A DNA stretch of 64,000 nt from Eubacteriales bacterium (GTDB lineage Bacteria; Bacillota; Clostridia; Oscillospirales; CAG-272). The number at the start of each line of letters is the position of its first letter. The stretch's first letter is position 1. This document shows positions 4,936 to 47,637 of this stretch, in pieces. A program made the position numbers and the translations under genes. The stretch is taken from assembly GCA_045658965.1 (NCBI GenBank), contig JAZOVZ010000086.1, positions 43,175 to 107,174 on the forward strand. The letters are read 5' to 3'. The notes beneath the pieces are model-generated. The model was not told the origin of the DNA. It did no database searches and was given only the letters and a program-made list of their open reading frames with translations.

Positions 4936-5528
4936 ATCGAATAACCCTCACTTCCAAGTTTTTCTTTCAAGGCACTTCTAATGGCGGCAAGCTCCTTGTT
5001 TACCATTGAACGGCTTAAGTTCAGATCACTTGCAATCGTGTCAATGGGATCGGCAACGTAGTACCTACTCATAAATATGAATTGTCTGCGCTCGGAAAGC
5101 GAGTGAACAAAGTTGCTGATGACGCGCCCCAGTCTCTCTGCGTCAAAATCTGCACCGACGTCCTCGTCACCGGCTACGAAATCTTCAAGCTCGGACAAAG
5201 ACACTGTCATTTCGGAAGGTATCACGTTCTGCCGCAGATTGCTGTGATAGCGTTTGATCGCAATTCTTCGTGCGATGGTCGTCAGAAATGCTTTGAGCAC
5301 ATTTGGTCTTGATGGCGGCATTGCGTTCCATGCACCAAGATATGTATCGTTCAGGCATTCCTCGCAGTCAAGCCTATCGTGAACGACATTGTAAGCAATA
5401 GAAAACAGATACTTCTTGTATTTGAAGTCGGTCTCCTCAATCGCTTTTTCATCGCGTTCCCAATAAAGCTCAACGATCTTTTCGTCGTCCATCGGCACTT
5501 TTGCCGTTTGTTTGCTTTGAAGTTCCAT
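4932..5528 (-). CDS. RNA polymerase sigma-70 family (ECF-like) factor, cassette 1
   Basis: It has a region-2-like block (ELYWERDEKAI...DCEECLNDTYLGAWNAMPPSRP) and a region-4 HTH (IDTIASDLNLSRSMVNKELAAIRSALKEKL). An RBS GGAAGGAGG sits upstream of the ATG. There are 3 paralogues in the window. Confidence 0.85.
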   Translation of the reverse strand: MELQSKQTAKVPMDDEKIVELYWERDEKAIEETDFKYKKYLFSIAYNVVHDRLDCEECLNDTYLGAWNAMPPSRPNVLKAFLTTIARRIAIKRYHSNLRQNVIPSEMTVSLSELEDFVAGDEDVGADFDAERLGRVISNFVHSLSERRQFIFMSRYYVADPIDTIASDLNLSRSMVNKELAAIRSALKEKLGSEGYSI

Positions 5529-28023: not shown

Positions 28024-29478
28024 TTATTCAATCAGAACTTTACCATCTGTACAAATGACTTGAATTTGGTGATCGGTACAAAGAACATCTCCGCTCCCTA
28101 CATGCATAATCCATTCGGCTTTTGTACCATTATAATTTATGGTACGAAGCGTACTCTTGGAAAACGCCCAACTTCCAATAATCACGTATGGGTATGGTAT
28201 ATTAAGAATCTCAATAGTGCAGCCATAAAATGCTTTATCCTGAATTGTTTTAGTGTTTTTCGAAAGCTCTACTACATTCAAATCTTCACAACCCGAAAAC
28301 GCCTCCCAACTGATTGTCTCCAAACTAACGGGAATGATGATTTTGATCAGGCCCGATCCGTAGAACGCACCAGATCCTAAAGTTAACAAACTATCCGGCA
28401 GAGTAATTTTTTGCAGTGCTGAACAGTTTCTAAATGCGTAATCCCCAATCGTTAACACGTTTCCATTGAACGTAACCTGCTTTAGATACGCGTTAGACGA
28501 ACACATTTCCTCGGGGATATGGAGCACGTTTGATGGAATTACAATTTCTTTTAGCTTTGCATTTTTAAACGCAGCTTTTCCAATAGCGACCAAACTTTCC
28601 GGCAAATTAATGGTCTCAAGATTTGGACAGGCAAACGCATATGATCCTATTTCATTCAATCTTTCAGGCAATATCACCTCTTGCAGTCCCGTGTGATTTT
28701 CAAATGCATGATCCGCTATACTTTTGACGGGTATGCCCTCTATTTCTTCCGGAATAATCACGCGATATCGATAATCGGATTCACTCTGTGATTCATTCGT
28801 GAATCCTAAAACCACAAATAAGTCTCCACGCTCGTTCAATTGATACTGTACATCCTGATCATCCACACGAATCACACCGGGTTCTAACGGAGGCAAAGTT
28901 TCTGTTTCCGATTCAAATTCAGTATCCGTTTCCGTTTGGGTATCCGTCTCACCTATGATTGCATCAACCTCATCCTTATGATCGATATAATACTCATAAA
29001 GTCTTTCCAGGAAATCTCCAAGATCCTGCATGCTCTCGCCTACCAATCCATCGCTTTGCATGGATTGCAGCTTGTTGATGACCGAATCATCCGTACCTGC
29101 GCCGAGAGCGTTGAAGAGCTCTTCGGTAAACTTCCATTCGATCCAATTCAGCTGCAACAGACTTTGCGCAGGCGGTGTGGGTGCATCGGGATCGTCCGGA
29201 TCTGCGGGCTGCTGATCCAACGGGAACAGCACGTTCTCGATGACTTGGCTGCCCCATTCTTGCACGGGCTTGCTGCCAAGCACGATAAAAGACAGCGGCA
29301 GAGAGACAAGCAGCATGGAGAACACCAAAGCAAGGCAGGCTGCGCTGATCAGGATGCCGCGGTTTCTCTTTCGGCGTCTTGATTTGAGAATAGACAGCTT
29401 GGTTTCATACTGCACGTACTCAATGATATACTTTTGGTCAATGGCGGAAATCGCATCAATCATCACGTTTTTGTTCAT
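28024..29478 (-). CDS. Membrane-anchored sigma partner with BspA-type leucine-rich-repeat ectodomain, cassette 2
   Basis: Its ATG overlaps the sigma stop (ATGA 29475-29478). Order of parts: N-terminal IDAISAIDQKYIIEYV, a basic stretch, a TM helix (GILISAACLALVFSMLLVSLPLSFIVL), a conserved juxtamembrane module, an acidic T/E linker, then repeats of about 23 aa of the type IPxxVxxIGxxAFxxCxxLxxI (LRR_5/BspA-like). Confidence 0.7.
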   Translation of the reverse strand: MNKNVMIDAISAIDQKYIIEYVQYETKLSILKSRRRKRNRGILISAACLALVFSMLLVSLPLSFIVLGSKPVQEWGSQVIENVLFPLDQQPADPDDPDAPTPPAQSLLQLNWIEWKFTEELFNALGAGTDDSVINKLQSMQSDGLVGESMQDLGDFLERLYEYYIDHKDEVDAIIGETDTQTETDTEFESETETLPPLEPGVIRVDDQDVQYQLNERGDLFVVLGFTNESQSESDYRYRVIIPEEIEGIPVKSIADHAFENHTGLQEVILPERLNEIGSYAFACPNLETINLPESLVAIGKAAFKNAKLKEIVIPSNVLHIPEEMCSSNAYLKQVTFNGNVLTIGDYAFRNCSALQKITLPDSLLTLGSGAFYGSGLIKIIIPVSLETISWEAFSGCEDLNVVELSKNTKTIQDKAFYGCTIEILNIPYPYVIIGSWAFSKSTLRTINYNGTKAEWIMHVGSGDVLCTDHQIQVICTDGKVLIE

Positions 29479-31737: not shown

Positions 31738-32304
31738 TTACTCCTTATATACAAAGAACTTTTCGCTGTACAGATCCACGACCGTTTGCGGATCGTTTTT
31801 CATGGTGACAACGATATATGTATCACCGTATTCGGACATCTGCAGCCAGACCGATAATCTTGACGGGCAGCTTGAGCCGTTTCGCTTATCATGGTAAATG
31901 CGATATTCCTTGCCGCCCTCAAAGGAAACGACATCATAACCGTAATCCCTCAAGGAATGCCACGGGTCAAACTCCACGAAGCTTAAAAACTTGGCGCGCT
32001 CAATGACGACCTGCGAGCCGTCCTCGTTTTTGACCGCGCGGATCAGCGTAACCGTTTTGTATATCAGATATGCGCATACCGCTGCAAGCGCCAGCATAAC
32101 AACGCCGCAAAACGCCATAAAACCCACCGCTTGATCTGCGGGCTCTTTTGCAAGCTCTTTGAACAGCCGGGATGCAAAGATCGCAAACACGATTGCCGTG
32201 ATCACGCCTGCCGCACCGTATATCGGGAAATAGAAATACGCGCCGCGGTTGAATTTTTTAAGCAGCATTTCCCTTGTAATAACTTCTCTTCTGTCTTCTT
32301 GCAC
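31738..32304 (-). CDS. Hypothetical 2-TM membrane protein, paralogue 2 of 3
   Basis: I reassigned the start to GTG-32304, which is preceded by GGAGGG-ATAAC and lies 1 nt after the stop of the upstream paralogue. The ORF-track TTG-32337 would overlap by 32 nt. It has 2 TM helices and a C-terminal domain ending GDTYIVVTM...YSEKFFVY. Confidence 0.65.
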   Translation of the reverse strand: MQEDRREVITREMLLKKFNRGAYFYFPIYGAAGVITAIVFAIFASRLFKELAKEPADQAVGFMAFCGVVMLALAAVCAYLIYKTVTLIRAVKNEDGSQVVIERAKFLSFVEFDPWHSLRDYGYDVVSFEGGKEYRIYHDKRNGSSCPSRLSVWLQMSEYGDTYIVVTMKNDPQTVVDLYSEKFFVYKE

Positions 32305-32305
32305 G

Positions 32306-32890
32306 TTATCCCTCCGTTCCTTGTGCCATATCGTCAACGTATTCGTACATTGCCTCGGGATAAATCATCTGCAGCTCCCAGCTCTTTTTCTGATAGATCA
32401 CCAAAATAAAAGACTGCCCCACGCCGAACTTGTCGCGTGCGCGGTTTTTCTCGGACTCTGTCCACAGCCCCTCTTTCATGGTAAAGGTGTTTCCGCGCGC
32501 AAATTCAAACACGTCGTATTCGATTTCTTTTAACGTGTGCGTGCGGTGGCTGTAATAGGTTTCCACGCACTTGCGCACTTCGGTCAGCGTGTCAATCACC
32601 ACGGTGACGTCGCCTTCCATAATGCTCTGCTTCTTTTGGTGCATTTCCCCAACCCGCCTGAAGCCTCCATAGAGCAAAACAGGTATTGCGGCACAAGGTA
32701 TAATGCCAAAAACAAAGCCACCCAATCTGTTGACGTCGCTCCACATCCAGTTTGCCACGAAAAGCATGACCAAAAAAGGGACGCACGCACCGAACGAGAT
32801 AGCGATCATCATACCGAATTTGTCGGTCGCGCGCTCAGTCATGGTACGCAATATATCGGATTTTTTGAGTATTTTTCTCTGCTCTTCCAT
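32306..32890 (-). CDS. Hypothetical 2-TM membrane protein, paralogue 3 of 3
   Basis: I set the start at ATG-32890 (MEEQRKILKK), preceded by AAGGAGAAGCGC. The ORF-track start at 32965 lies upstream of the mapped promoter. It has 2 TM helices and a C-terminal domain ending GQSFILVIY...YPEAMYEY. Confidence 0.7.
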   Translation of the reverse strand: MEEQRKILKKSDILRTMTERATDKFGMMIAISFGACVPFLVMLFVANWMWSDVNRLGGFVFGIIPCAAIPVLLYGGFRRVGEMHQKKQSIMEGDVTVVIDTLTEVRKCVETYYSHRTHTLKEIEYDVFEFARGNTFTMKEGLWTESEKNRARDKFGVGQSFILVIYQKKSWELQMIYPEAMYEYVDDMAQGTEG

Positions 32891-32923
32891 GCGCTTCTCC
32901 TTGCTTTGGCAATCATTATACAC

Positions 32924-32952
32924 ATTATACCAAATACACACACAAATGTCAA
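32924..32952 (-). promoter_or_regulatory. SigA-type promoter of the 3xTM-protein/fucosidase operon
   Basis: On the minus strand: TTGACA (32952-32947), a 17-nt spacer, then TATAAT (32929-32924). Confidence 0.75.
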
Positions 32953-32973
32953 CAAATCGCAACAAAAAGAGAT

Positions 32974-33012: not shown

Positions 33013-35343
33013 TTAAGCAATTGTTTCACCGTCCGTACAAACAACGGTGATATTAATATAATTAAAACCTACAAAATTGATTTGCCGCCACTCTTCCAAC
33101 GTGCCTTCGTAGTAGATATGCGTCATAGAATCGCAGCCTTTGAATGCGGATTTTCCAATCGTTTTCACACTTACGGGTATCGTAATCGATTCTAACTGCT
33201 TTGCATCGTAAAACGCAAAGGTTTCGATCTTTTCGATCCCTGCGGGCACAACGTAATCCACTACACCGGAATAACTGAAGGTACTCTCGGGAATATTCAC
33301 GATGCGTTCGGGGAATACGACCTCTTGAATATTGTCGCAATATTGAAAGAGTCGCTTACCGATCGTGTCCACGGAGTCGGGAAATGCAATATAGGTCAAG
33401 GCGTTGCAATACTCAAATGCATTATTACCGATCTTTCTCAAACTACTGTTCTCTGCAAAATGCACATCGGTCAGCGAAACGCATCTGTTAAACGCGTCAT
33501 CTCCGATGCTGACTACGTTTGCTCCAATATTCACGGTCTTCAAGCTCCGACAAAGGAAAAACGCACTTTTGCCGATCGAATTGATCGAGCTGCTTAACTC
33601 AAGCTGCTCCAAAGAGGTACAGCCGTAGAATGCGCTTCCGCCGATATTTTTCACGCCTTTTTCAAGCACAACCGTTTTGAGCGCAGTACAGTCCATAAAT
33701 GCCGAGGTTGGAATGGATTCAAGGCTTCCGGGAATCGTCAGCTCCACAAGAGACGTGCATTCCTTGAAGGCATCGACCTCCATGACCTTCAGATCGTTTG
33801 GCAGCACCAGCTTCTGTAATTTCATGCATCCGGAAAATGCATGCTCGCGGATGGTTCGGTATTCCACAGTTGCGGGATCGCCATCCTCAAACACAACCTC
33901 CTCAAGATACGAGCACTCGTCAAACGTATACTTTTCAATAGTGGCAACACCCTTGGGGATGTGCACACGCTTCAGCGATGAGCATCTATGGAAGGCGCGT
34001 TCACCAAGCGTAACCAGTCCGCCTGGAAGATCAGCGCTGACCAATGCTTTGCAATCCTTGAAGGCATCGTTTTCAATGGTGTGTACAGAATCGGGCAGAT
34101 CTATGCTGCGCAAAGAAAGACATCCATTAAACGCGCTTTCTCTGATATGCTCAAGCGTGTCGGGAAGGCTGACCGAGTAAAGCACATTACACGCATTGAA
34201 CATATTGGCATTCAGAATCTTGATCGGTGCAAGGATTTCCACTTGGACGACTCCGGACGCTGCAAAGATTTCTCCGTCAAGCTCAGTACAGCTTTCGGGG
34301 ATGGTAAACTCTGTCAGTTCCCTGCAATTTTTGAATACTCTGACACCGATCGACTGCAAATTAGGTGAGCAGTATACTTCTTTTAGGAAAATGCACCCCA
34401 TAAACAATTCGTGCTCCAGCGCAATGACGCTGTCGGGGATATGAATACTCTTAAGTGATGAGCAATTCACAAAGGCTTGCTGCCCGATGGTTTGCAGGCT
34501 TTCGGGCAACGTAATATTAGACAATTTTGTGCAATCGCGGAAGGCTTCCCTACCGATCGCGCTCACACCATCGGGAATATAGATCTCTTCAATATCGGTC
34601 TTTCGAAAAGCCTCCTCCCAAATCTCGGTAACGGGCTTTCCGTCGTAGGTAACGGGAATGATGATGACCTTATCCGTGCAATCTCCTATACCTGATACGG
34701 CATAGCTTTCACCGCCCGACAGTTCCTTGTACTTAAGCCCTTTGCTTCCATCCACATCATAACTCGGGTCGGGCTCGGGCTCGGGCTCGGGCTCGGTTTC
34801 GGATTCCTGCTGGCTTTCGGTCTCCTTTTCATCAGGCGGTAAATCCGTACCGTCTTTATGCTTCAGGTAATACTCATAAAGCTTGGCAAGGAACTCTCCA
34901 AGGCTTTGCATGCTATCGCCTGCAAGCGTACCGCCTTGCATGGATTGCATCTTATCAATGACAGAATCCTCGGTGCCCGCTCCTAAAGCATTAAAGAATT
35001 CCTCTGCGAATTTCCATTCGACCCAATTGATCAGCAGGTCCTCGGGGTTGATATTCTCCCCGTCGTCAGTTTCCTTATCAAGCGGGAACAGGATATTCTC
35101 CACGCCCTCGGATACGGCTGAGTTGATCTTTTCCGCATTGAAGACGTAAATAAGCGGTACAGACGTGATAAGCAGCGCGAAAATCAATATCATTGCAACG
35201 GCAGCGGCAAGCAAAGTCACCAGATATTTTTTGGTTTTGCCTGTCCTGCGGCGGCTGCGCAATCTTTGATCCATAAGCACGTAGGACTCCAGCAGTTCGG
35301 GATCGATCATGCCTACGGCATCAAACAACATGGCTTTTTTCAT
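33013..35343 (-). CDS. Membrane-anchored sigma partner with long BspA-type LRR ectodomain, cassette 3
   Basis: It overlaps the sigma stop as ATGA (35340-35343). Order of parts: N-terminal FDAVGMIDPELLESYV, a basic stretch, a TM helix (YLVTLLAAAVAMILIFALLITSVPLIYVF), a juxtamembrane module shared with cassette 2 (ENILFPLD...INWVEWKFAEEFFNALGAGTEDSVIDKMQSMQ...LYEYYLKHKD), an acidic EPEPEPEP linker, then more than 20 LRR_5-like repeats (ITLPESLQTIGQQAFVNCSSLKSIHIPDSV...). Confidence 0.75.
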   Translation of the reverse strand: MKKAMLFDAVGMIDPELLESYVLMDQRLRSRRRTGKTKKYLVTLLAAAVAMILIFALLITSVPLIYVFNAEKINSAVSEGVENILFPLDKETDDGENINPEDLLINWVEWKFAEEFFNALGAGTEDSVIDKMQSMQGGTLAGDSMQSLGEFLAKLYEYYLKHKDGTDLPPDEKETESQQESETEPEPEPEPDPSYDVDGSKGLKYKELSGGESYAVSGIGDCTDKVIIIPVTYDGKPVTEIWEEAFRKTDIEEIYIPDGVSAIGREAFRDCTKLSNITLPESLQTIGQQAFVNCSSLKSIHIPDSVIALEHELFMGCIFLKEVYCSPNLQSIGVRVFKNCRELTEFTIPESCTELDGEIFAASGVVQVEILAPIKILNANMFNACNVLYSVSLPDTLEHIRESAFNGCLSLRSIDLPDSVHTIENDAFKDCKALVSADLPGGLVTLGERAFHRCSSLKRVHIPKGVATIEKYTFDECSYLEEVVFEDGDPATVEYRTIREHAFSGCMKLQKLVLPNDLKVMEVDAFKECTSLVELTIPGSLESIPTSAFMDCTALKTVVLEKGVKNIGGSAFYGCTSLEQLELSSSINSIGKSAFFLCRSLKTVNIGANVVSIGDDAFNRCVSLTDVHFAENSSLRKIGNNAFEYCNALTYIAFPDSVDTIGKRLFQYCDNIQEVVFPERIVNIPESTFSYSGVVDYVVPAGIEKIETFAFYDAKQLESITIPVSVKTIGKSAFKGCDSMTHIYYEGTLEEWRQINFVGFNYINITVVCTDGETIA

Positions 35344-40313: not shown

Positions 40314-41261
40314 TCAGTAAAAAGTTGCTACTTCTTGTGTGGGCTTGGTGGCAAATTCGGTCTTTTCCGCGTAAAGCACGGGACCGGGTCTGCCGTAAAG
40401 CTTATGCTTTTCGATCTTGATCTTGGCGGTCACGACAGTCCAATCACGGGTCTTGAAGTTGGTTGCCGTCGGGAAATAGCAGACGAGTGCGTTATATGCA
40501 ATATCGTCTGCGCAGCAGGTCATAACGTGTCTGCCGATGACAAGTCCGTTCTTGCCAAGCGCGCGGTCACGCGCCACGATGCCCTTGAAGCGTACCGTCT
40601 TGCCGTCGTACTTTTCGGTATCCTCGGCAAGATCGCGGTACCAAACGGCATAGTCCTCATCCTTGACGTCAATGACAGGTGCATCAATATCAAAGGGCAG
40701 CGGATCCTCGATCTCATCGTATTCCACGTGTCCGTCGGGATAATCGTAGGTGATGGACGCGCGCGTGCTTACGCTGCGCACAACGCGGTGGATCTCCTCT
40801 TTATCAATGACCTCGGGCGTGCGGTTGAGCACGATCATTTCGCAATCCTGCAGCTTATCCACCATAAGCTGACGCATGTTTGCGTTATAGGTCAAAAAGG
40901 TTTTTGCGTCCGCAAACATCATGTTCTGGAAAATAAACCAGTCTGCGGGCAATGCGGCATACAGCTTGGAGAGCAGCCACATGCCATTATATTCGATGAT
41001 CACGCGGTCGATCTTGTGCTTTTTGTAAAGTAGGGTCAGATAGTCGCGCGTCAGCATTTCGGGATCGTCAAGCAGCTCAAGGTAAACGTTCTTGCCCCAG
41101 AAGCGGTCAAGATCCAGCTCCTCAATGCCCTCTTCGCACATGATCAGCAGCGTTTTTTCACCCGAATTGAAGCGCTGATCCTCCATGGACTCCTGAATGA
41201 TGTGCGTTTTGCCCCCTTCCAGGAAGCCCGTGAAGACGTATACGGGAATTTTGTTAGCCAT
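40314..41261 (-). CDS. Divergent G3E (CobW-like) P-loop protein fused to a CCADD-motif C-terminal domain
   Basis: The N-terminus IPVYVFTGFLEGGKTHII is a Walker A in CobW context. However, the CxCC motif is absent (LIMCEEGIEE replaces ENEFGE..GCICC) and NKxD is degenerate (VLNRTPE). The C-terminus VRFKGIVARD...VIGRHVMTCCADDIAY...DWTVVTAKI resembles the C-terminal domain of DUF1980/TIGR03943-type proteins; this is from memory, not from a search. Confidence 0.55.
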   Translation of the reverse strand: MANKIPVYVFTGFLEGGKTHIIQESMEDQRFNSGEKTLLIMCEEGIEELDLDRFWGKNVYLELLDDPEMLTRDYLTLLYKKHKIDRVIIEYNGMWLLSKLYAALPADWFIFQNMMFADAKTFLTYNANMRQLMVDKLQDCEMIVLNRTPEVIDKEEIHRVVRSVSTRASITYDYPDGHVEYDEIEDPLPFDIDAPVIDVKDEDYAVWYRDLAEDTEKYDGKTVRFKGIVARDRALGKNGLVIGRHVMTCCADDIAYNALVCYFPTATNFKTRDWTVVTAKIKIEKHKLYGRPGPVLYAEKTEFATKPTQEVATFY

Positions 41262-41392
41262 AGTAATCTCCTTGCCGCCTATGGCGGCTAAAATAGTTTT
41301 GAAATCTTATCTGAAAATGGGCTGTGCCCCATTTTCAAGTAAGATTTATGCGTGAACACCAGCCTAAACGAAAGGAGGTGTGAAAATTCACG
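41262..41392 (-). promoter_or_regulatory. Conserved structured intercistronic element, copy 1 of 2
   Basis: This 131-nt spacer runs from the TAG stop to the ATG. With 44712..44843 it shares, read on the minus strand, the blocks TAGCGTGAA, TTCACGC, TAAATCT, AAAATGGG-6nt-CCCATTTT, AAAACT and GGAGATTA. It contains nested hairpins. Confidence 0.6.
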
Positions 41393-42628
41393 CTATCCCT
41401 CCGACTTATGCAATGCTACACCCAGCAGCTCACCGATGGCATCAATGTTCAGATTCGAGCCGATAACGCACAGTCTGCCGATGATGCCTGCAGCACCCGT
41501 ACGAATGTCGGGCTCACCGGGAACGTAGTCAAAGTGGATCCAGCTGCCGTCGTCCCCTGCTACGATGCCCTTTGCACGCAGTACGATGCCGAATTTGCCC
41601 TCATCGCAAAGCTCGTCAAGCTGCTCAGCAAGCAGTTTTGCATTGAACTTAGCCGTGGTTTCTGCGCCTGCGCTGATGAATACCTCGTCTGCATGGTGGT
41701 GATGGTGATGACCGCCGCAGCCGCAGCTGCAGGTCTCGTCATGCTCGTGATGATGGTGATGTTCGTGCTCATGCTCATGCTCATGCTCGTGCTCATGATC
41801 ATGGCAGCCGCACTCGCAGTGCTCATCATGATCGTGATGATGGTGATGTTCGTGCTCGTGCTCATGGTCATGGCAACCGCACTCGCAATGGTCGTCATGG
41901 TCATGATGATGGTGATGCTCATGCTCATGCTCATGATCATGCTCATGGCAACCGCACTCGCAGTGCTCGTCATGATCGTGATCATGGTGATGGTGGTGCG
42001 CATGCTCCAATCTTTCAAGCTCAGCCTGTAAAGTGTCCTTGCGCTCCATGGCTTCCAGCAGCTGCTCTGCGCTCAGAATATCCCAATCGGTCGTGACGAT
42101 GGTTGCGGTAGTATTGTGCTCACGCAGCATTGCAACGCACTCGGAAATCTTCTTTTCGCTTGCAGTACCGGTATGAGAAAGCACGATACAGCCTGCGTTG
42201 GCAACCTGATCGTTGAAAAACTCGCCGAAGTTTTTCATGTACATCTTGCACTTGCCTGCATCCACAACGGTAGTGAATGCATTAAGCTCTGCGCCCTCTA
42301 CGTGCAGATTCTGCACCGCTCTGATCACGTCGGACAGCTTGCCGACACCCGAGGGCTCGATCAGAATTCTGTCGGGTGCGTACTGCTCCAGCACCTGCGT
42401 CAGCGCCTTACCAAAGTCGCCAACCAAGGAGCAGCAAATGCAGCCCGAATTCATTTCGTTGATCTGAATGCCTGCCTCTGCAAGAAAGCCGCCATCAATG
42501 CCGATCTCACCGAATTCGTTTTCGATCAGCACCAGCTTCTCTCCCTTGTAAGCCTGCTCGATCATCTTCTTGATCAGCGTGGTCTTACCCGCGCCCAAAA
42601 ATCCGGAAAAAATATCTATCTTAGTCAT
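41393..42628 (-). CDS. COG0523/CobW-family G3E GTPase (putative metallochaperone) with giant His/Cys-rich insert
   Basis: Walker A FSGFLGAGKTTLI, ENEFGEIGID, the canonical metal motif NSGCICCSL, and IEPSGVGK. A 104-aa His/Cys array is followed by a CobW_C-like C-terminus (FGIVLRAKGIV...WIHFDYVPGE). The start is 6 nt after the upstream stop. Confidence 0.85.
   Translation of the reverse strand: MTKIDIFSGFLGAGKTTLIKKMIEQAYKGEKLVLIENEFGEIGIDGGFLAEAGIQINEMNSGCICCSLVGDFGKALTQVLEQYAPDRILIEPSGVGKLSDVIRAVQNLHVEGAELNAFTTVVDAGKCKMYMKNFGEFFNDQVANAGCIVLSHTGTASEKKISECVAMLREHNTTATIVTTDWDILSAEQLLEAMERKDTLQAELERLEHAHHHHHDHDHDEHCECGCHEHDHEHEHEHHHHHDHDDHCECGCHDHEHEHEHHHHHDHDEHCECGCHDHEHEHEHEHEHEHHHHHEHDETCSCGCGGHHHHHHADEVFISAGAETTAKFNAKLLAEQLDELCDEGKFGIVLRAKGIVAGDDGSWIHFDYVPGEPDIRTGAAGIIGRLCVIGSNLNIDAIGELLGVALHKSEG
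41693..42004 (-). repeat. In-frame tandem repeat encoding the His/Cys array
   Basis: ATGGCArCCGCACTCGCArTG recurs at 41801, 41870 and 41945 (69- and 75-bp periods). It encodes 3 units HHHHHDHD(E/D)HCECGCH(D/E)H(E/D)HEHEH plus a 4th degenerate unit (ETCSCGCGGHHHHHH). Confidence 0.9.
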
Positions 42629-44354: not shown

Positions 44355-44711
44355 TTATTCAACGTAAGAGGTTACGATGATATCTGCGCCCGTACCAAGC
44401 AGGTTAGCAATGACCACGTCACCCTGCTTGACGGTAACGGGGGCTATGCAAGCGTTGATCTCCTTCATGCAATCAAACAGCAGCTCCTTGGGGACTGCCT
44501 TATTGGACTTGACGGCAACCACTTCACCGCTCTCGGTCATAACAGTGGTCGTCAGCGTTCTCGTGGGTGCGGTGCATTCCGCAACGGCATAATCCGTGCC
44601 GCGCTTGCAAGCGTTGCCCTTAACGCTCAGCACCTTTTTGTCCTCCAACTCCACGGTCAGCGTGCAGCCGCGGGGACAAATGATACAAGTCATTTCTCTT
44701 TTATTTTCCAT
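44355..44711 (-). CDS. DUF1667 domain protein (third member of the glpA-like trio)
   Basis: MTCIICPRGCTLTVE...VKGNACKRGTDYAVAE is the CxxCPxGC...C cysteine pattern typical of DUF1667. I chose ATG-44711, which follows GGAGATTATT; the ORF-track ATG-44723 lacks spacing to an SD. Confidence 0.75.
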   Translation of the reverse strand: MENKREMTCIICPRGCTLTVELEDKKVLSVKGNACKRGTDYAVAECTAPTRTLTTTVMTESGEVVAVKSNKAVPKELLFDCMKEINACIAPVTVKQGDVVIANLLGTGADIIVTSYVE

Positions 44712-44843
44712 AATAATCTCCATTCCACAAAGTTTTAAAATTTCACCGTGGAGCTTTGCTCCAAAAATGGGTTGGGTCCCATTTTTAGGTGAGATTTAAG
44801 CGTGAATCGTAAAGTTATCAGATGGGTTGCGTGCGCTTTCACG
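44712..44843 (-). promoter_or_regulatory. Conserved structured intercistronic element, copy 2 of 2
   Basis: This 132-nt spacer runs from the TAG stop (44844-44846) to ATG-44711. It has the same block order as 41262..41392. The invariant stem GCGTGAA:TTCACGC encloses 31 nt here, versus 30 nt in copy 1. Confidence 0.6.
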
Positions 44844-46088
44844 CTATTCCTCCAATCCAATGGTTATAGTGCCCTCTGCCAGCTCGGCAAGCACCTGGGC
44901 GGTCAGCTTGACCGTCTCCATCTCACCGGGGGCGAGCTTGATCTTCTTTTTATTCGAAATGACGCGATCACCGCACTTGACCACGACTCGCTTGTCGCGG
45001 AACACGTCGGCAACGCGGAAATAAACGGTGGTGTCCTGTGCGCTGGTGATCTTCTGCGGTACGGTATAGCGTACGCCGCCTACGGGCTGCAAGGTAATAT
45101 CCACGCGCTCGCTTTGCTTGTTAGCCAGATAATCGGCAGCAGCGCAGCCGGCGATCTCTGCTTCCTCGGATACGTAGTCCACAAGGTCGTGCACGTGCAG
45201 CACGTTACCGCATGCAAACACACCGGGAATAGAGGTCTGTCTGCTCTGGTCGGTCACGGCGCCGCCCGTAATTCTGTCCATGGTAATGCCTGCGCCCTTG
45301 GTCAGCTCGTTTTCGGGCAGCAGACCGCAGGAAAGCAGCAGCGTGTCGCACGCGATATACTGCTCGGTCTCCTTGATGGGATTGCGTCTCTCATCCACCT
45401 TGGCAATGGTCACGCCCGTGACTCTGTCCTTACCGTGGATCTGTACGACGGTGTGCGACAGCATCAGCGGAATGCCGAAATCATTCAGACACTGCTCGAT
45501 GTTACGCGCCAGACCGCCCGAATAAGGCATCAGCTCGCAAACTGCCTTGACCTTTGCACCCTCCAGCGTCATGCGGCGTGCCATGATCAGACCGATATCG
45601 CCCGAGCCGAGGATAACGACCTCTTTACCGGGCATATAGCCCTTGATATTAACGTATTTCTGTGCAGTACCCGCGGTATAGATACCCGAGGGACGTGCAC
45701 CTGCGATATTCAGCGCACCCTTGGGACGCTCGCGGCAACCCATGGCGAGAATGATCGCCTCTGCTTGAATATGCATAATACCGTCGGTGGGATTGACTGC
45801 GGTGATCACCTTATCCTCGGTGATGCCGGTCACCATAGTGCCCACCTTATAAGGAATGCCCAGCTCCTTGACCTGCTCGGCATAGCGAGCGGCATACTCG
45901 GGGCCTGTCAGCTCCTCACCGAATTTGTGAAGACCGAAGCCGTTATGAATGCACTGGCGCAGAATACCGCCCAGGTGCGCTTCACGCTCCAGGATCAGCA
46001 GATCGGTTACGCCTGCCTTATATGCGGCAACTGCCGCGCTCATGCCTGCGGGGCCGCCGCCGACGATTACAAGAGAAACCTTACGCAT
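44844..46088 (-). CDS. FAD/NAD(P)-dependent pyridine nucleotide-disulfide-type oxidoreductase
   Basis: I set the start at ATG-46088 (MRKVSLVIVGGGPAGMSAAVAAYKAG). A second dinucleotide motif is VVILGSGDIGLIMA. It overlaps the upstream stop by 8 nt (ATGCGTAA). Confidence 0.8.
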   Translation of the reverse strand: MRKVSLVIVGGGPAGMSAAVAAYKAGVTDLLILEREAHLGGILRQCIHNGFGLHKFGEELTGPEYAARYAEQVKELGIPYKVGTMVTGITEDKVITAVNPTDGIMHIQAEAIILAMGCRERPKGALNIAGARPSGIYTAGTAQKYVNIKGYMPGKEVVILGSGDIGLIMARRMTLEGAKVKAVCELMPYSGGLARNIEQCLNDFGIPLMLSHTVVQIHGKDRVTGVTIAKVDERRNPIKETEQYIACDTLLLSCGLLPENELTKGAGITMDRITGGAVTDQSRQTSIPGVFACGNVLHVHDLVDYVSEEAEIAGCAAADYLANKQSERVDITLQPVGGVRYTVPQKITSAQDTTVYFRVADVFRDKRVVVKCGDRVISNKKKIKLAPGEMETVKLTAQVLAELAEGTITIGLEE

Positions 46089-47529
46089 CGTTCTTATCCC
46101 CCTTGGTTCTTCCGTAGTTAATAATAGATGCACCGCCCGACTTGGTGACCTGCTCGTAAGGAATGCCCATCTCTCTGGACAGAATCTCTACGATGATAGA
46201 GGAGCAGAAGCCTCCCTGGCATCTGCCCATGCCGCTTCTCGTGCGGCGCTTGACACCGTCCACGTCGCGTGCACCGGGATTGGTACGGATGGCTGCCACG
46301 ATCTCGCCCTCGCTGACGCCCTCGCAACGGCAGACCATATTGCCGTAGGCAGGGTTTTCTTTGATGATCTCGTTCTTTTGCTCGTCGGTCATCTTACTGA
46401 ATTTGATCGCGCCCTTGGTGCGTACGGGCGACCAATCTGCCTTTTTCTCAAGAGCCAAGCCCTCGAGAGCAAGCAGCTCTGCGCAATACTCTGCAAGTGC
46501 GGGTGCGCTGGTCAGACCGGGGCTTTCAATGCCGCCGAAGGTGATAAAGCCGGGAGCGGATGCATGGATGATAAAGTCACCCGTGCTGCCAACGGCACGC
46601 AAGCCGGTAAAGCTTGTAATGACAGCGTTAAAAGGAATGTTCTGCACGTATCTTGCACTCTGTGCGCGGATAGATGCAGTACCTGCTGCCGTGGTATCAA
46701 GGTCTTCCTTATCGGTCAGTTCCTCTGCGGTAGGACCGAGCATAACGTTGCCGCCCGTGGTGGCGGTCACAAGGATGCCCTTACCCTTGGGGGTGGGGGT
46801 GGAAAACAGAGTAAAGTTGGTCAAGGAAGGCGTGAACGCCTTGTCCAGCACCATATATTCACCGCGTCTGGGGTGAACGGTAAAGGAATCGTCACCGACC
46901 ATAGCGGCGATCTTATCGGAATACAGACCTGCGCAGTTGACAACGTACTTGGCACGTACGGTCTGCTCTCCTGCATACAGCACGTAAGCGTCGTCCTCAC
47001 GCTCGATTCTGTCAACCTCAAAATTGCGGATAAACTCGGCACCGTTGTCCATTGCATGTCCAAGACCTGCATCGCAAAGCCCGAAGGGGCTGACGATGGC
47101 ACCCGTGGGTGCGTAGAGTGCGCAGGTGACCTCCTCGGTCACGTGGGGCTCGAGTGCTACCACGCCCTCGCGGTCAAGCAGCTGCAGATCCTTCACGCCG
47201 TTTTTAACACCGCGCTCGTAAAGGTCGCCGAGGGTTGCCTTGTCCTCATCGGAATATCCAAGCACCAGCGAGCCGTTACGCACGTATTTGACACCGAGGT
47301 CGCGGCAAACCTGCTCCATCATTTCAGAGCCGCGCACGTTAAATCTTGCCTTTAAGGTGCCGGGCTTTGCATCAAAGCCTGCGTGCACAATGGCACTGTT
47401 GGCACGGGATGCGCCCGTGCAGACGTCGTTTGCGCGATCAACAACGCAAACGTTCAGCTTATAAGCGGACAGCTCGCGCGCACAAAGTGCACCGACCACA
47501 CCCGCTCCGACGATACATACGTCAAACAT
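46081..47529 (-). CDS. FAD-dependent glycerol-3-phosphate-dehydrogenase-like oxidoreductase with BFD-like [2Fe-2S] domain
   Basis: I set the start at ATG-47529 (MFDVCIVGAGVVGALCARELS), preceded by GGAGG. It has a DAO-type fold and a C-terminal VCRCEGVSEGEIV...MGRCQGGFC, which is the BFD-like Cys pattern. This is the GlpA/GlpD-like class. Confidence 0.75.
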   Translation of the reverse strand: MFDVCIVGAGVVGALCARELSAYKLNVCVVDRANDVCTGASRANSAIVHAGFDAKPGTLKARFNVRGSEMMEQVCRDLGVKYVRNGSLVLGYSDEDKATLGDLYERGVKNGVKDLQLLDREGVVALEPHVTEEVTCALYAPTGAIVSPFGLCDAGLGHAMDNGAEFIRNFEVDRIEREDDAYVLYAGEQTVRAKYVVNCAGLYSDKIAAMVGDDSFTVHPRRGEYMVLDKAFTPSLTNFTLFSTPTPKGKGILVTATTGGNVMLGPTAEELTDKEDLDTTAAGTASIRAQSARYVQNIPFNAVITSFTGLRAVGSTGDFIIHASAPGFITFGGIESPGLTSAPALAEYCAELLALEGLALEKKADWSPVRTKGAIKFSKMTDEQKNEIIKENPAYGNMVCRCEGVSEGEIVAAIRTNPGARDVDGVKRRTRSGMGRCQGGFCSSIIVEILSREMGIPYEQVTKSGGASIINYGRTKGDKNDA

Positions 47530-47637
47530 AAAAATCCTCCGTTTTCCCATAGTATGGCATTATATTATTATTCAAAATATATTATATCACCGATCCCCTT
47601 TCCCGTCAAGAAAATTCCGCGTTTTTATTGACAAAAT

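Follow-up and report, generated by a model that had tools for sequence, protein, structure and literature searches.

Two intercistronic spacers in a 64,000-nt stretch of an Eubacteriales genome (contig JAZOVZ010000086.1; hereafter the window) are paralogous copies of a conserved, strongly folding element, which in both places has been inserted exactly between a stop codon and the next start codon of one operon. Copy 1 (c1) separates a gene for a His-rich cobW-family protein from a cobW/DUF1980_C gene, and copy 2 (c2) a Pyr_redox_2 oxidoreductase gene from a DUF1667 gene (Table 1). As a conserved insertion the element is well documented; its distribution is narrow, and its function has to be read from its anatomy. 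Tentatively, we favour a sense-strand mRNA module that would hide the ribosome-binding site (Shine-Dalgarno sequence, SD) orphaned by the insertion together with the GUG that follows it, supply a new SD, and probably serve as an intercistronic processing or stability site.

The evidence for insertion comes from relatives' loci, chosen via homologues of the 315-aa protein encoded downstream of c1. Because relatives with the same gene order (L013-16, L021-24 and L031-36) have stop/start gaps of 1–4 nt at both orthologous junctions, c1 and c2 are each a lineage-specific insertion; filled and empty genomes do not differ in gene order. The tightly packed same-strand setting reported in a preliminary description of this DNA is thus borne out. 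That description had also noted that the last sense codons (GGAGGR) match between the copies, and had listed them in the run common to both. They do match; however, the 5' GGAGG and the stop codon are host sequence, namely the SD of the downstream gene lying within the end of the upstream gene, as in a translationally coupled junction. The inserted DNA proper extends from CGTGAA to GGAGATTAYT, taking the place of the few gap bases. When filled sites are compared with empty ones, these 1–4 bases turn out to be replaced and nothing is duplicated at the target site. Terminal inverted repeats are lacking as well: CGTGAATTTT... at one end and ...GGAGATTACT at the other are not inverted copies of each other. 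Both copies sit after ATAR.

The two spacers share, in order, the blocks GGAGGrATAG-CGTGAA, a variable stretch of 30 or 31 nt, TTCACGCwTAAATCTyAC, AAAATGGG-N6-CCCATTTT, AAAACT and GGAGATTAyT-ATG. The window contains exactly two occurrences of each core pattern (0.18 and 0.31 expected), and a profile hidden Markov model (nhmmer) matches both spacers at E 1e-42 to 1e-44. Profile and covariance model together place both copies at E 1e-36 to 1e-44 with no other match in the window, and no third copy was found in ~416 kb of related DNA. Over 185,579 genomes (one per species), a strict core pattern matched three metagenome-assembled genomes (MAGs) once each, a count to be read with the incompleteness of MAGs and the escape of diverged cores in mind. 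All three matches lie at orthologous positions, one at the c2 site (L001) and two at the c1 site (L002 and L003), in Clostridia/Eubacteriales MAGs from cattle and human gut. A metagenome scan with the pattern returned nine matches that all lacked the remaining motif and are chance hits, and searches of plasmid, phage and viral contigs returned nothing similar. Rfam 15 gave no match at gathering thresholds over the whole window and nothing at E ≤ 10 for the two spacers; with the longer 145-nt form described below, the best match was the DUF1874 RNA at 17 bits (gathering threshold 42; E 0.53). The preliminary description therefore stands in calling the spacers paralogues, in finding no third copy in the window and in assigning the element to no known class.

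We derived the anatomy from nine distinct copies, seven of c1 and two of c2. The element opens with a helix, P1, whose base is invariant in the nine sequences except for its first pair, which uses the G of TAG and is lost where the stop is TAA (L026, L028-30); the invariant 7-bp helix described earlier therefore holds for six of its pairs. The consensus continues with a 2-nt linker and a second helix, P2 (AAAUCUYACC:GGURAGAUUU), which surrounds the hairpins P2a (AAAAUGGG-N6-CCCAUUUU) and P2b (GGAGC-NNN-GCUCC). It ends with an invariant single-stranded AAAAC, the hairpin P3 (GCCGCC-AUR-GGCGGC) and AAGGAGAUUAYU-AUG, within which GGAGATT-N3-ATG is invariant. Both copies are oriented with the operon. 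The outer helix that the preliminary description assigned to c1 is present there; it is not confined to c1, since c2 has AAATCTCACC:GGTGAAATTT, which encloses a second hairpin. Most c1 copies are of a 145-nt form with one hairpin more than the window c1, and a 14-nt deletion common to the window and L026 removes P2b but leaves P2 intact. The ancestral form is ~145 nt long; one hairpin has been lost from the window c1 allele.

The folding of either copy is much stronger than that of shuffled sequences (z −5.6 for c1 and −4.1 for c2), as expected of the real structured element proposed earlier. Across the nine copies, 84.6% of cells pair in the proposed structure, compared with 32–46% when the partners are slid. 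Columns 63/110 of P2 covary (U-A in six copies, C-G in three) and form one clean compensatory pair, and P3 in the orthologues has two one-sided changes that retain G.U pairs. Six one-sided changes give G.U on the sense strand and three would do so on the antisense strand. The covariation score was reached by 12 of 500 shuffles, a result that nine related sequences are too few to make decisive. RNAalifold and a count of compatible pairs also point to an alternative 5' fold, in which the host GGAGG pairs with CCUCC of the P1 top and GUGA with the proximal UCAC. This SD-hiding helix is 90% pair-compatible across copies, and the alternative fold is the predicted minimum-free-energy structure of the window c1 once its flanks are added. 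In the predicted ensemble of each copy the GUG is paired (probability unpaired ≤0.06). The P2a stem has three or four G-C pairs (−3.4 to −12.2 kcal/mol). Its earlier designation as terminator-like does not hold up: a consensus scan for intrinsic terminators is silent on AAAATGGG/CCCATTTT, the U-run is paired with an A-run, and the hairpin is eroded in L025 and L026.

Conservation is concentrated in the part outside the P1 top. In comparisons between lineages, the adjacent gene is 48–65% identical at its four-fold degenerate sites and the P1 tops of the same copies are 57–77% identical, which is not different from neutral, whereas the ~100-nt core outside the P1 top is 85–92% identical (Fisher p 1e-6 to 1e-10). 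Since core identity lies far above that of the four-fold sites while the P1 top behaves neutrally, the core is under purifying selection at fixed sites, and the element is neither a recent local duplication nor merely decaying junk. At least five further lineages carry c1 at the same position; c2 was found in only one other lineage. The simple recent local duplication that the preliminary description had allowed for is contradicted both by these c1 orthologues and by the conserved core.

The history of the element seems to be more complex than vertical descent. In a tree built for the downstream gene, the clade that is sister to the window (100% bootstrap) has neither junction filled, and L035/36 are empty yet nested within the filled clade; they retain the outgroup-type GGC-TGA stop, which suggests that they were never filled. 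A single gain followed by vertical descent fits poorly, as the gene tree would need at least two precise losses or recombination. Around c1, the window and L026 are 0.87–0.95 identical over ~400 nt, with flanks at 0.77–0.84, and they also share a nearly identical P1 top; around c2, the window and L001 reach 0.95–0.96, with flanks at 0.87–0.91. Because of these short high-identity patches, we think that short recombination tracts carried filled alleles between lineages. c2 itself resembles c1 of the L025/L027 type (P2b present, C-G at 63/110, ACCCAA loop) and is preceded by c1's ATAG before CGTGAA, where empty c2 sites have TTAA, suggesting that c2 may be a copy of a c1-type element, placed in another, similar junction within the operon. 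Proteins of the c2-type (118-aa DUF1667) occur on one contig each, and empty-type proteins of the same 90% cluster on dozens.

This patchy presence, the locally raised identity, the shared junction type of both sites, the transplanted ATAG and the rarity of c2-type DUF1667 proteins would all be expected of a selfish or near-neutral non-autonomous insertion, a 'portable junction' similar to miniature inverted-repeat transposable elements (MITEs) or palindrome-associated transposable elements (PATEs), which would persist only thanks to its own SD, spread by recombination between related genomes and between similar junctions, and do nothing for the host except leave the operon unbroken. We regard this explanation as rather unlikely: only two sites have ever been seen, with one or two copies per genome, inverted termini and target duplications are missing and gap bases are replaced, plasmids, phages and viral contigs hold nothing similar, and the conserved core with its drifted P1 top argues for selection in place and against recent spread. 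The earlier suggestion of a small non-autonomous mobile insertion thus survives as to insertion, given the empty orthologous sites; the two sites and the missing terminal repeats and target duplications speak against mobility. As a separate observation, L028, L029 and L030 are 98–100% identical in the adjacent gene, yet differ at 3–7 positions of the 145-nt element. These differences include a double change, ACC to CGC, by which two mismatches in the P1 top become Watson-Crick pairs, as well as shuffled run lengths (G-run/C-run) in the loop of P2a.

The model that we favour, the sense-strand mRNA module, starts from a translationally coupled junction (GGAGG in the upstream gene, stop, start) whose 1–4-nt gap would be taken over by the element. 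The 5' module, be it P1 or the GGAGG:CCUCC helix with a GUGA:UCAC mini-hairpin, would bury the orphaned SD and the GUG, and the 3' end would bring a strong new SD (AAGGAG-N6-AUG). The DUF1667 or cobW/DUF1980_C gene would then be initiated independently and not by coupling. With P1, P2 and P2a upstream and P3 downstream of a conserved A/U-rich single-stranded linker (CAAAACUAUUU), hairpins and linker would most likely form a processing or stability site through which the proximal and distal parts of the operon come to differ in amount. Action at the RNA level, uncoupling of translation and the processing or stability role are what we infer from this anatomy. If the model is correct, the element is a compact RNA module that can be placed precisely between stop and start codons, shuts off the ribosome-binding site left behind, brings its own and rewires operon ratios while the genes stay undisturbed. 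Natural filled and empty alleles in close relatives offer a ready-made experiment on coupling versus independent initiation and on intercistronic structure versus mRNA fate, within the narrow scope of two sites in one clade of uncultured gut or rumen Clostridia.

Several results weigh against this model. The antisense strands fold as well as the sense strands. Covariation is thin, as the P1 base, P2a and most of P2 never vary, and invariant pairs are equally compatible with sequence recognition by a protein or with a role at the DNA level. Since c2 lacks P3 and the window c1 lacks P2b, no single architecture is obligatory. When flanks are included, the predicted accessibility of the new SD is inconsistent (0.01–0.42). 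Finally, many close relatives, including the sister clade of the window, do without the element, so any benefit would be conditional or small.

The invariant palindrome arms, which do not covary and have drifting sequence between them, together with the equal folding of both strands, could instead reflect a DNA-level site: either a folded single-stranded recombination site of the attC type or a protein operator on the GCGTGAA/TTCACGC and AAAATGGG/CCCATTTT palindromes. The two copies flank a three-gene block, and the sole Rfam resemblance is to the DUF1874 RNA, itself suspected of being attC-like. That match, however, lies far below its threshold and lacks the conserved internal loop of the motif, and the sense strand is slightly favoured by the one-sided changes to G.U, a weak argument at six to three. 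attC sites have R''/R' cores (RYYYAAC...GTTRRRY), stand in cassette arrays and usually depend on an IntI integrase. The arms GCGTGAA/TTCACGC miss this core consensus, the annotations of relatives show no integrase or recombinase family within ±10 kb, and the unchanged gene order of filled and empty loci speaks against cassette shuffling. We therefore rejected an attC site, and a DNA-level role in general strikes us as very unlikely. A Zur box was considered for AAATCTTAC on account of the cobW context and is not supported: boxes of the Zur or Fur type are close palindromes in promoters, the P2 arms, which resemble a Zur half-site, lie ~40 nt apart, and the fur-linked cobW promoter of a distant relative has AGAATAATTCT instead.

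A further possibility arises from the GTG that stands 6 nt after the host GGAGG, nearly exactly at the old start-codon position. A native coupled junction elsewhere in the window (GGAGGGATAAC-GTG; 32300-32315, minus strand), which joins the stop of the gene at 32306-32965 to the GTG start of the next gene, is identical to the 5' end of the element at 15 of 16 bases; the GTG of the element therefore stands in a normal start-codon context. In a relay or attenuator, ribosomes would re-initiate at this GUG via the orphaned SD, and translating 18 (c1) or 35 (c2) codons across P1, P2 and P2a would remodel the hairpins and thereby control read-through or downstream initiation. The 18-codon frame is open in all seven c1 copies even though its middle 10 codons drift, close pairs show three single differences, all synonymous (TTT/TTC, ACT/ACC, CGG/CGA), and the c2 frame, shifted by one extra base in P1, remains open to 13 nt before the SD and is open in L001 too. 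Yet the peptide middle is not conserved (FRLGW, SCQNG, FRKER, SRLER), and ten drifting codons staying open in ~5 lineages has p ~0.1 by our own estimate. Even third codon positions of the conserved block are invariant; the constraint is therefore on nucleotides and not on the peptide, so that at most the act of translation would matter. We thus rejected a functional small protein, given the freely differing middle residues and the other frame of c2. The relay itself is unlikely in our view: the GUG is base-paired in all predicted ensembles, and P2a is not convincing as a terminator.

The conserved core and the failure of any known family to match also leave room for a riboswitch-like element of a new kind that responds to a ligand or a protein, or for a self-cleaving ribozyme, in either case with joint control of DUF1667 and cobW/DUF1980_C. 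P2, P2a and P2b form a three-way junction with conserved junction and linker nucleotides, and the 5' strand of P1 has two alternative pairings. We nevertheless deem this highly improbable, as the element is kept where P2b (window c1, L026) or P3 (c2) is deleted, its junction strands measure just 1–3 nt, its distribution is very narrow with many relatives lacking it, and the two downstream genes share no obvious metabolite. The alternative pairings could also belong to a new class of cis-acting intercistronic RNA switch, which would toggle between P1 and the SD-hiding helix in response to upstream translation, a protein or a ligand, and which would have been copied to place DUF1667 and the metallochaperone-like cobW/DUF1980_C gene under common post-transcriptional control. 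Such a switch, which seems unlikely to us, would amount to a portable 'junction cassette' by which coupled translation gives way to regulated independent initiation.

The operon forms a single minus-strand string in the order DAO/GlpA-like, Pyr_redox_2, c2, DUF1667, GH99-like, cobW (His-rich), c1, cobW/DUF1980_C and GH42-like. Both copies lie downstream of the likely operon promoter on the same strand (Table 1), and a scan for internal promoters gave just weak 9/12 matches, which overlap the c2 SD. Between the −10 box of the operon and the first ATG (47540-47580, minus strand) lies an AT-rich stretch (ATATTTTGAATAATAATATAAT) that could be an operator. The 3' end of c2 (aATGGAGATTATT-ATG; 44712-44723, minus strand) creates an in-frame ATG four codons before the DUF1667 start, and open reading frame (ORF) finders can therefore call a 122-aa 'MEII...' product. 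No representative in a DUF1667 protein database search begins in this way, and the N-terminal extension was abandoned as a marker of further c2 sites, there being no such cluster representatives. An exact look-up of the DUF1667 protein of the window gave no match, even though the collection contains that sequence.

Table 1. Positions of the element, its parts and its surroundings in the window, and state of the two junctions in relatives (L numbers).
Feature	Position or locus	Strand	Description
c1 (copy 1)	41262..41392	minus	131 nt; fills stop-to-start gap, His-rich cobW gene / cobW/DUF1980_C gene
c1 P1	41350..41393	minus	base GCGTGAA:TTCACGC; 30-nt imperfect hairpin top containing CCUCC
c1 P2	41302..41347	minus	AAATCTTA:TAAGATTT; encloses P2a; P2b deleted in window allele
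c1 P2a	41314-41335	minus	AAAATGGG-N6-CCCATTTT; inside P2
c1 linker	41296..41301	minus	CAAAAC, single-stranded; AAAAC invariant in 9/9 copies
c1 P3	41274..41288	minus	GCCGCC-ATA-GGCGGC; directly upstream of new SD
c1 new SD and start	41259..41273	minus	AAGGAGATTACT-ATG
c1 mini-ORF	41335..41391	minus	GTG 1 nt past stop; 18 codons; TGA at P2a foot (MNFHTSFRLGWCSRINLT)
Host SD, orphaned by c1	41398..41402	minus	GGAGG; in empty and filled alleles; can pair with CCUCC in P1 top
c2 (copy 2)	44712..44843	minus	132-nt paralogous insertion, Pyr_redox_2 gene / DUF1667 gene
c2 P1	44800..44844	minus	base GCGTGAA:TTCACGC; 31-nt top unrelated in sequence to c1 top
c2 P2	44738..44797	minus	AAATCTCACC:GGTGAAATTT; encloses P2a (44764-44785) and P2b
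c2 P2b	44750-44762	minus	GGAGC-AAA-GCTCC
c2 new SD and start	44709..44721	minus	GGAGATTATT-ATG; P3 largely deleted in c2
c2 mini-ORF	44735..44842	minus	same GTG, other frame; 35 codons; ends 13 nt before SD
Host SD, orphaned by c2	44849..44853	minus	GGAGG; end of Pyr_redox_2 gene
cobW/DUF1980_C gene	40314-41261	minus	ATG start; downstream of c1
His-rich cobW-family gene	41393-42628	minus	ends in TAG; upstream of c1
DUF1667 gene	44355-44711	minus	downstream of c2
Pyr_redox_2 oxidoreductase gene	44844-46133	minus	upstream of c2
Likely operon promoter	47581..47609	minus	TTGACG-17-TGnTATAAT; 11/12 consensus matches; upstream of DAO/GlpA-like gene
c1 junction (j1), empty	L021-24, L031-34		GGAGGGATAA-TC-ATGG
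c1 junction (j1), empty	L035/36		GGAGGGCTGA-TC-ATGG
c1 junction (j1), empty	L013-16		GGAGGGCTGA-T-ATGG
c1 junction (j1), filled	window, L025-L030		element present
c2 junction (j2), empty	L021, L025 and others		GGAGGATTAA-AGTC/GT-ATGG and similar
c2 junction (j2), filled	window, L001 only		element present

The surroundings of the element gave some further observations. The His-rich coding region of the cobW gene (41666-42007) consists of imperfect 69–87-nt repeats, which attract spurious weak miRNA matches in Rfam; the length of its product varies from 356 to 416 aa among relatives. In a distant relative with a ~70% identical protein (L019, 8430-8810), the cobW pair is on its own and follows a divergent Fur-family gene, the palindrome AGAATAATTCT and a tRNA gene, an arrangement consistent with Zur-type control of the ancestral cobW pair. 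In L032 (3053-4741), the GH99-like gene is split into ORFs of 410 and 140 aa on one metagenome contig, possibly owing to a frameshift or an assembly error. Elsewhere in the window, 28973-29156 versus 34853-35036 and a 60-nt family at 5313, 29847, 35721 and 57470 are diverged direct repeats (73–77%) with a 6-kb spacing. These repeats probably reflect paralogous gene pairs for an extracytoplasmic-function (ECF) sigma factor and an LRR_5 protein; such pairs recur in the annotation of relatives L013, L021 and L026 downstream of the operon.

Among known systems, the REP/BIME, ERIC, Correia (NEMIS), RUP/BOX and bcr1 repeats occur in many dispersed copies, usually bordered by terminal inverted repeats and target duplications. 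Like the present element, they are small (~100–170 nt), strongly folding insertions in same-strand gaps that are co-transcribed with the operon, are present or absent between close relatives, and are thought to alter mRNA processing or stability. The present element differs in having one or two copies per genome at two sites, without inverted or target repeats, in spanning exactly from stop to start, and in carrying its own SD. Measured against MITEs and dispersed repeats in general, it has filled and empty alleles, and neither many dispersed copies nor terminal and target repeats. PATEs derived from IS200/IS605 insert 3' of a fixed tetra- or pentanucleotide without duplication and have subterminal hairpins at both ends and a cognate TnpA. 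Our two copies are each preceded by ATAR, and c1 has a hairpin close to either end (P1 and P3); these two hairpins are unlike each other, and c2 is without P3.

Of intra-operon RNAs, the eps-associated RNA (EAR), an Rfam family, is a structured RNA located between epsB and epsC of Bacillus. It resembles our element as a conserved ~120-nt structured RNA between genes within one operon rather than a 5' leader; unlike it, EAR is neither an insertion polymorphism nor duplicated within its operon, and cmscan gave no sequence or structure match. The leader-peptide attenuators of ermC, cat and pyrBI likewise have a short ORF with its own SD that overlaps hairpins before a second SD, and a short-ORF stop codon that abuts a hairpin. 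Here, by contrast, the copies conserve neither peptide nor frame, no conserved hairpin holds the second SD, and the element lies between genes and not at the operon head. The DUF1874 RNA motif (RF02953), which is found in intergenic regions that follow one another, has been suspected of being an attC-like site (PMC5737381). Both have an outer stem around two hairpins followed by an SD, and both occupy more than one intergenic gap of a gene string. However, the highly conserved internal loop of that motif is missing in our element (which has a 6-nt loop), only two copies exist, and the genes between them are not cassette-like. The plastid intercistronic expression element (IEE) is a short element proposed to split a polycistronic mRNA into stable, separately translatable units (PMC2230500). 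There is no homology, and the IEE acts via the footprint of a pentatricopeptide repeat (PPR) protein, whereas the role considered here is derived from anatomy. Bacterial 5' or 3' stabiliser hairpins are comparable in the same respect. While a member of none of these families, the element is closest in kind to the intercistronic repeat insertions (REP/ERIC/Correia) and to intra-operon RNAs such as EAR.

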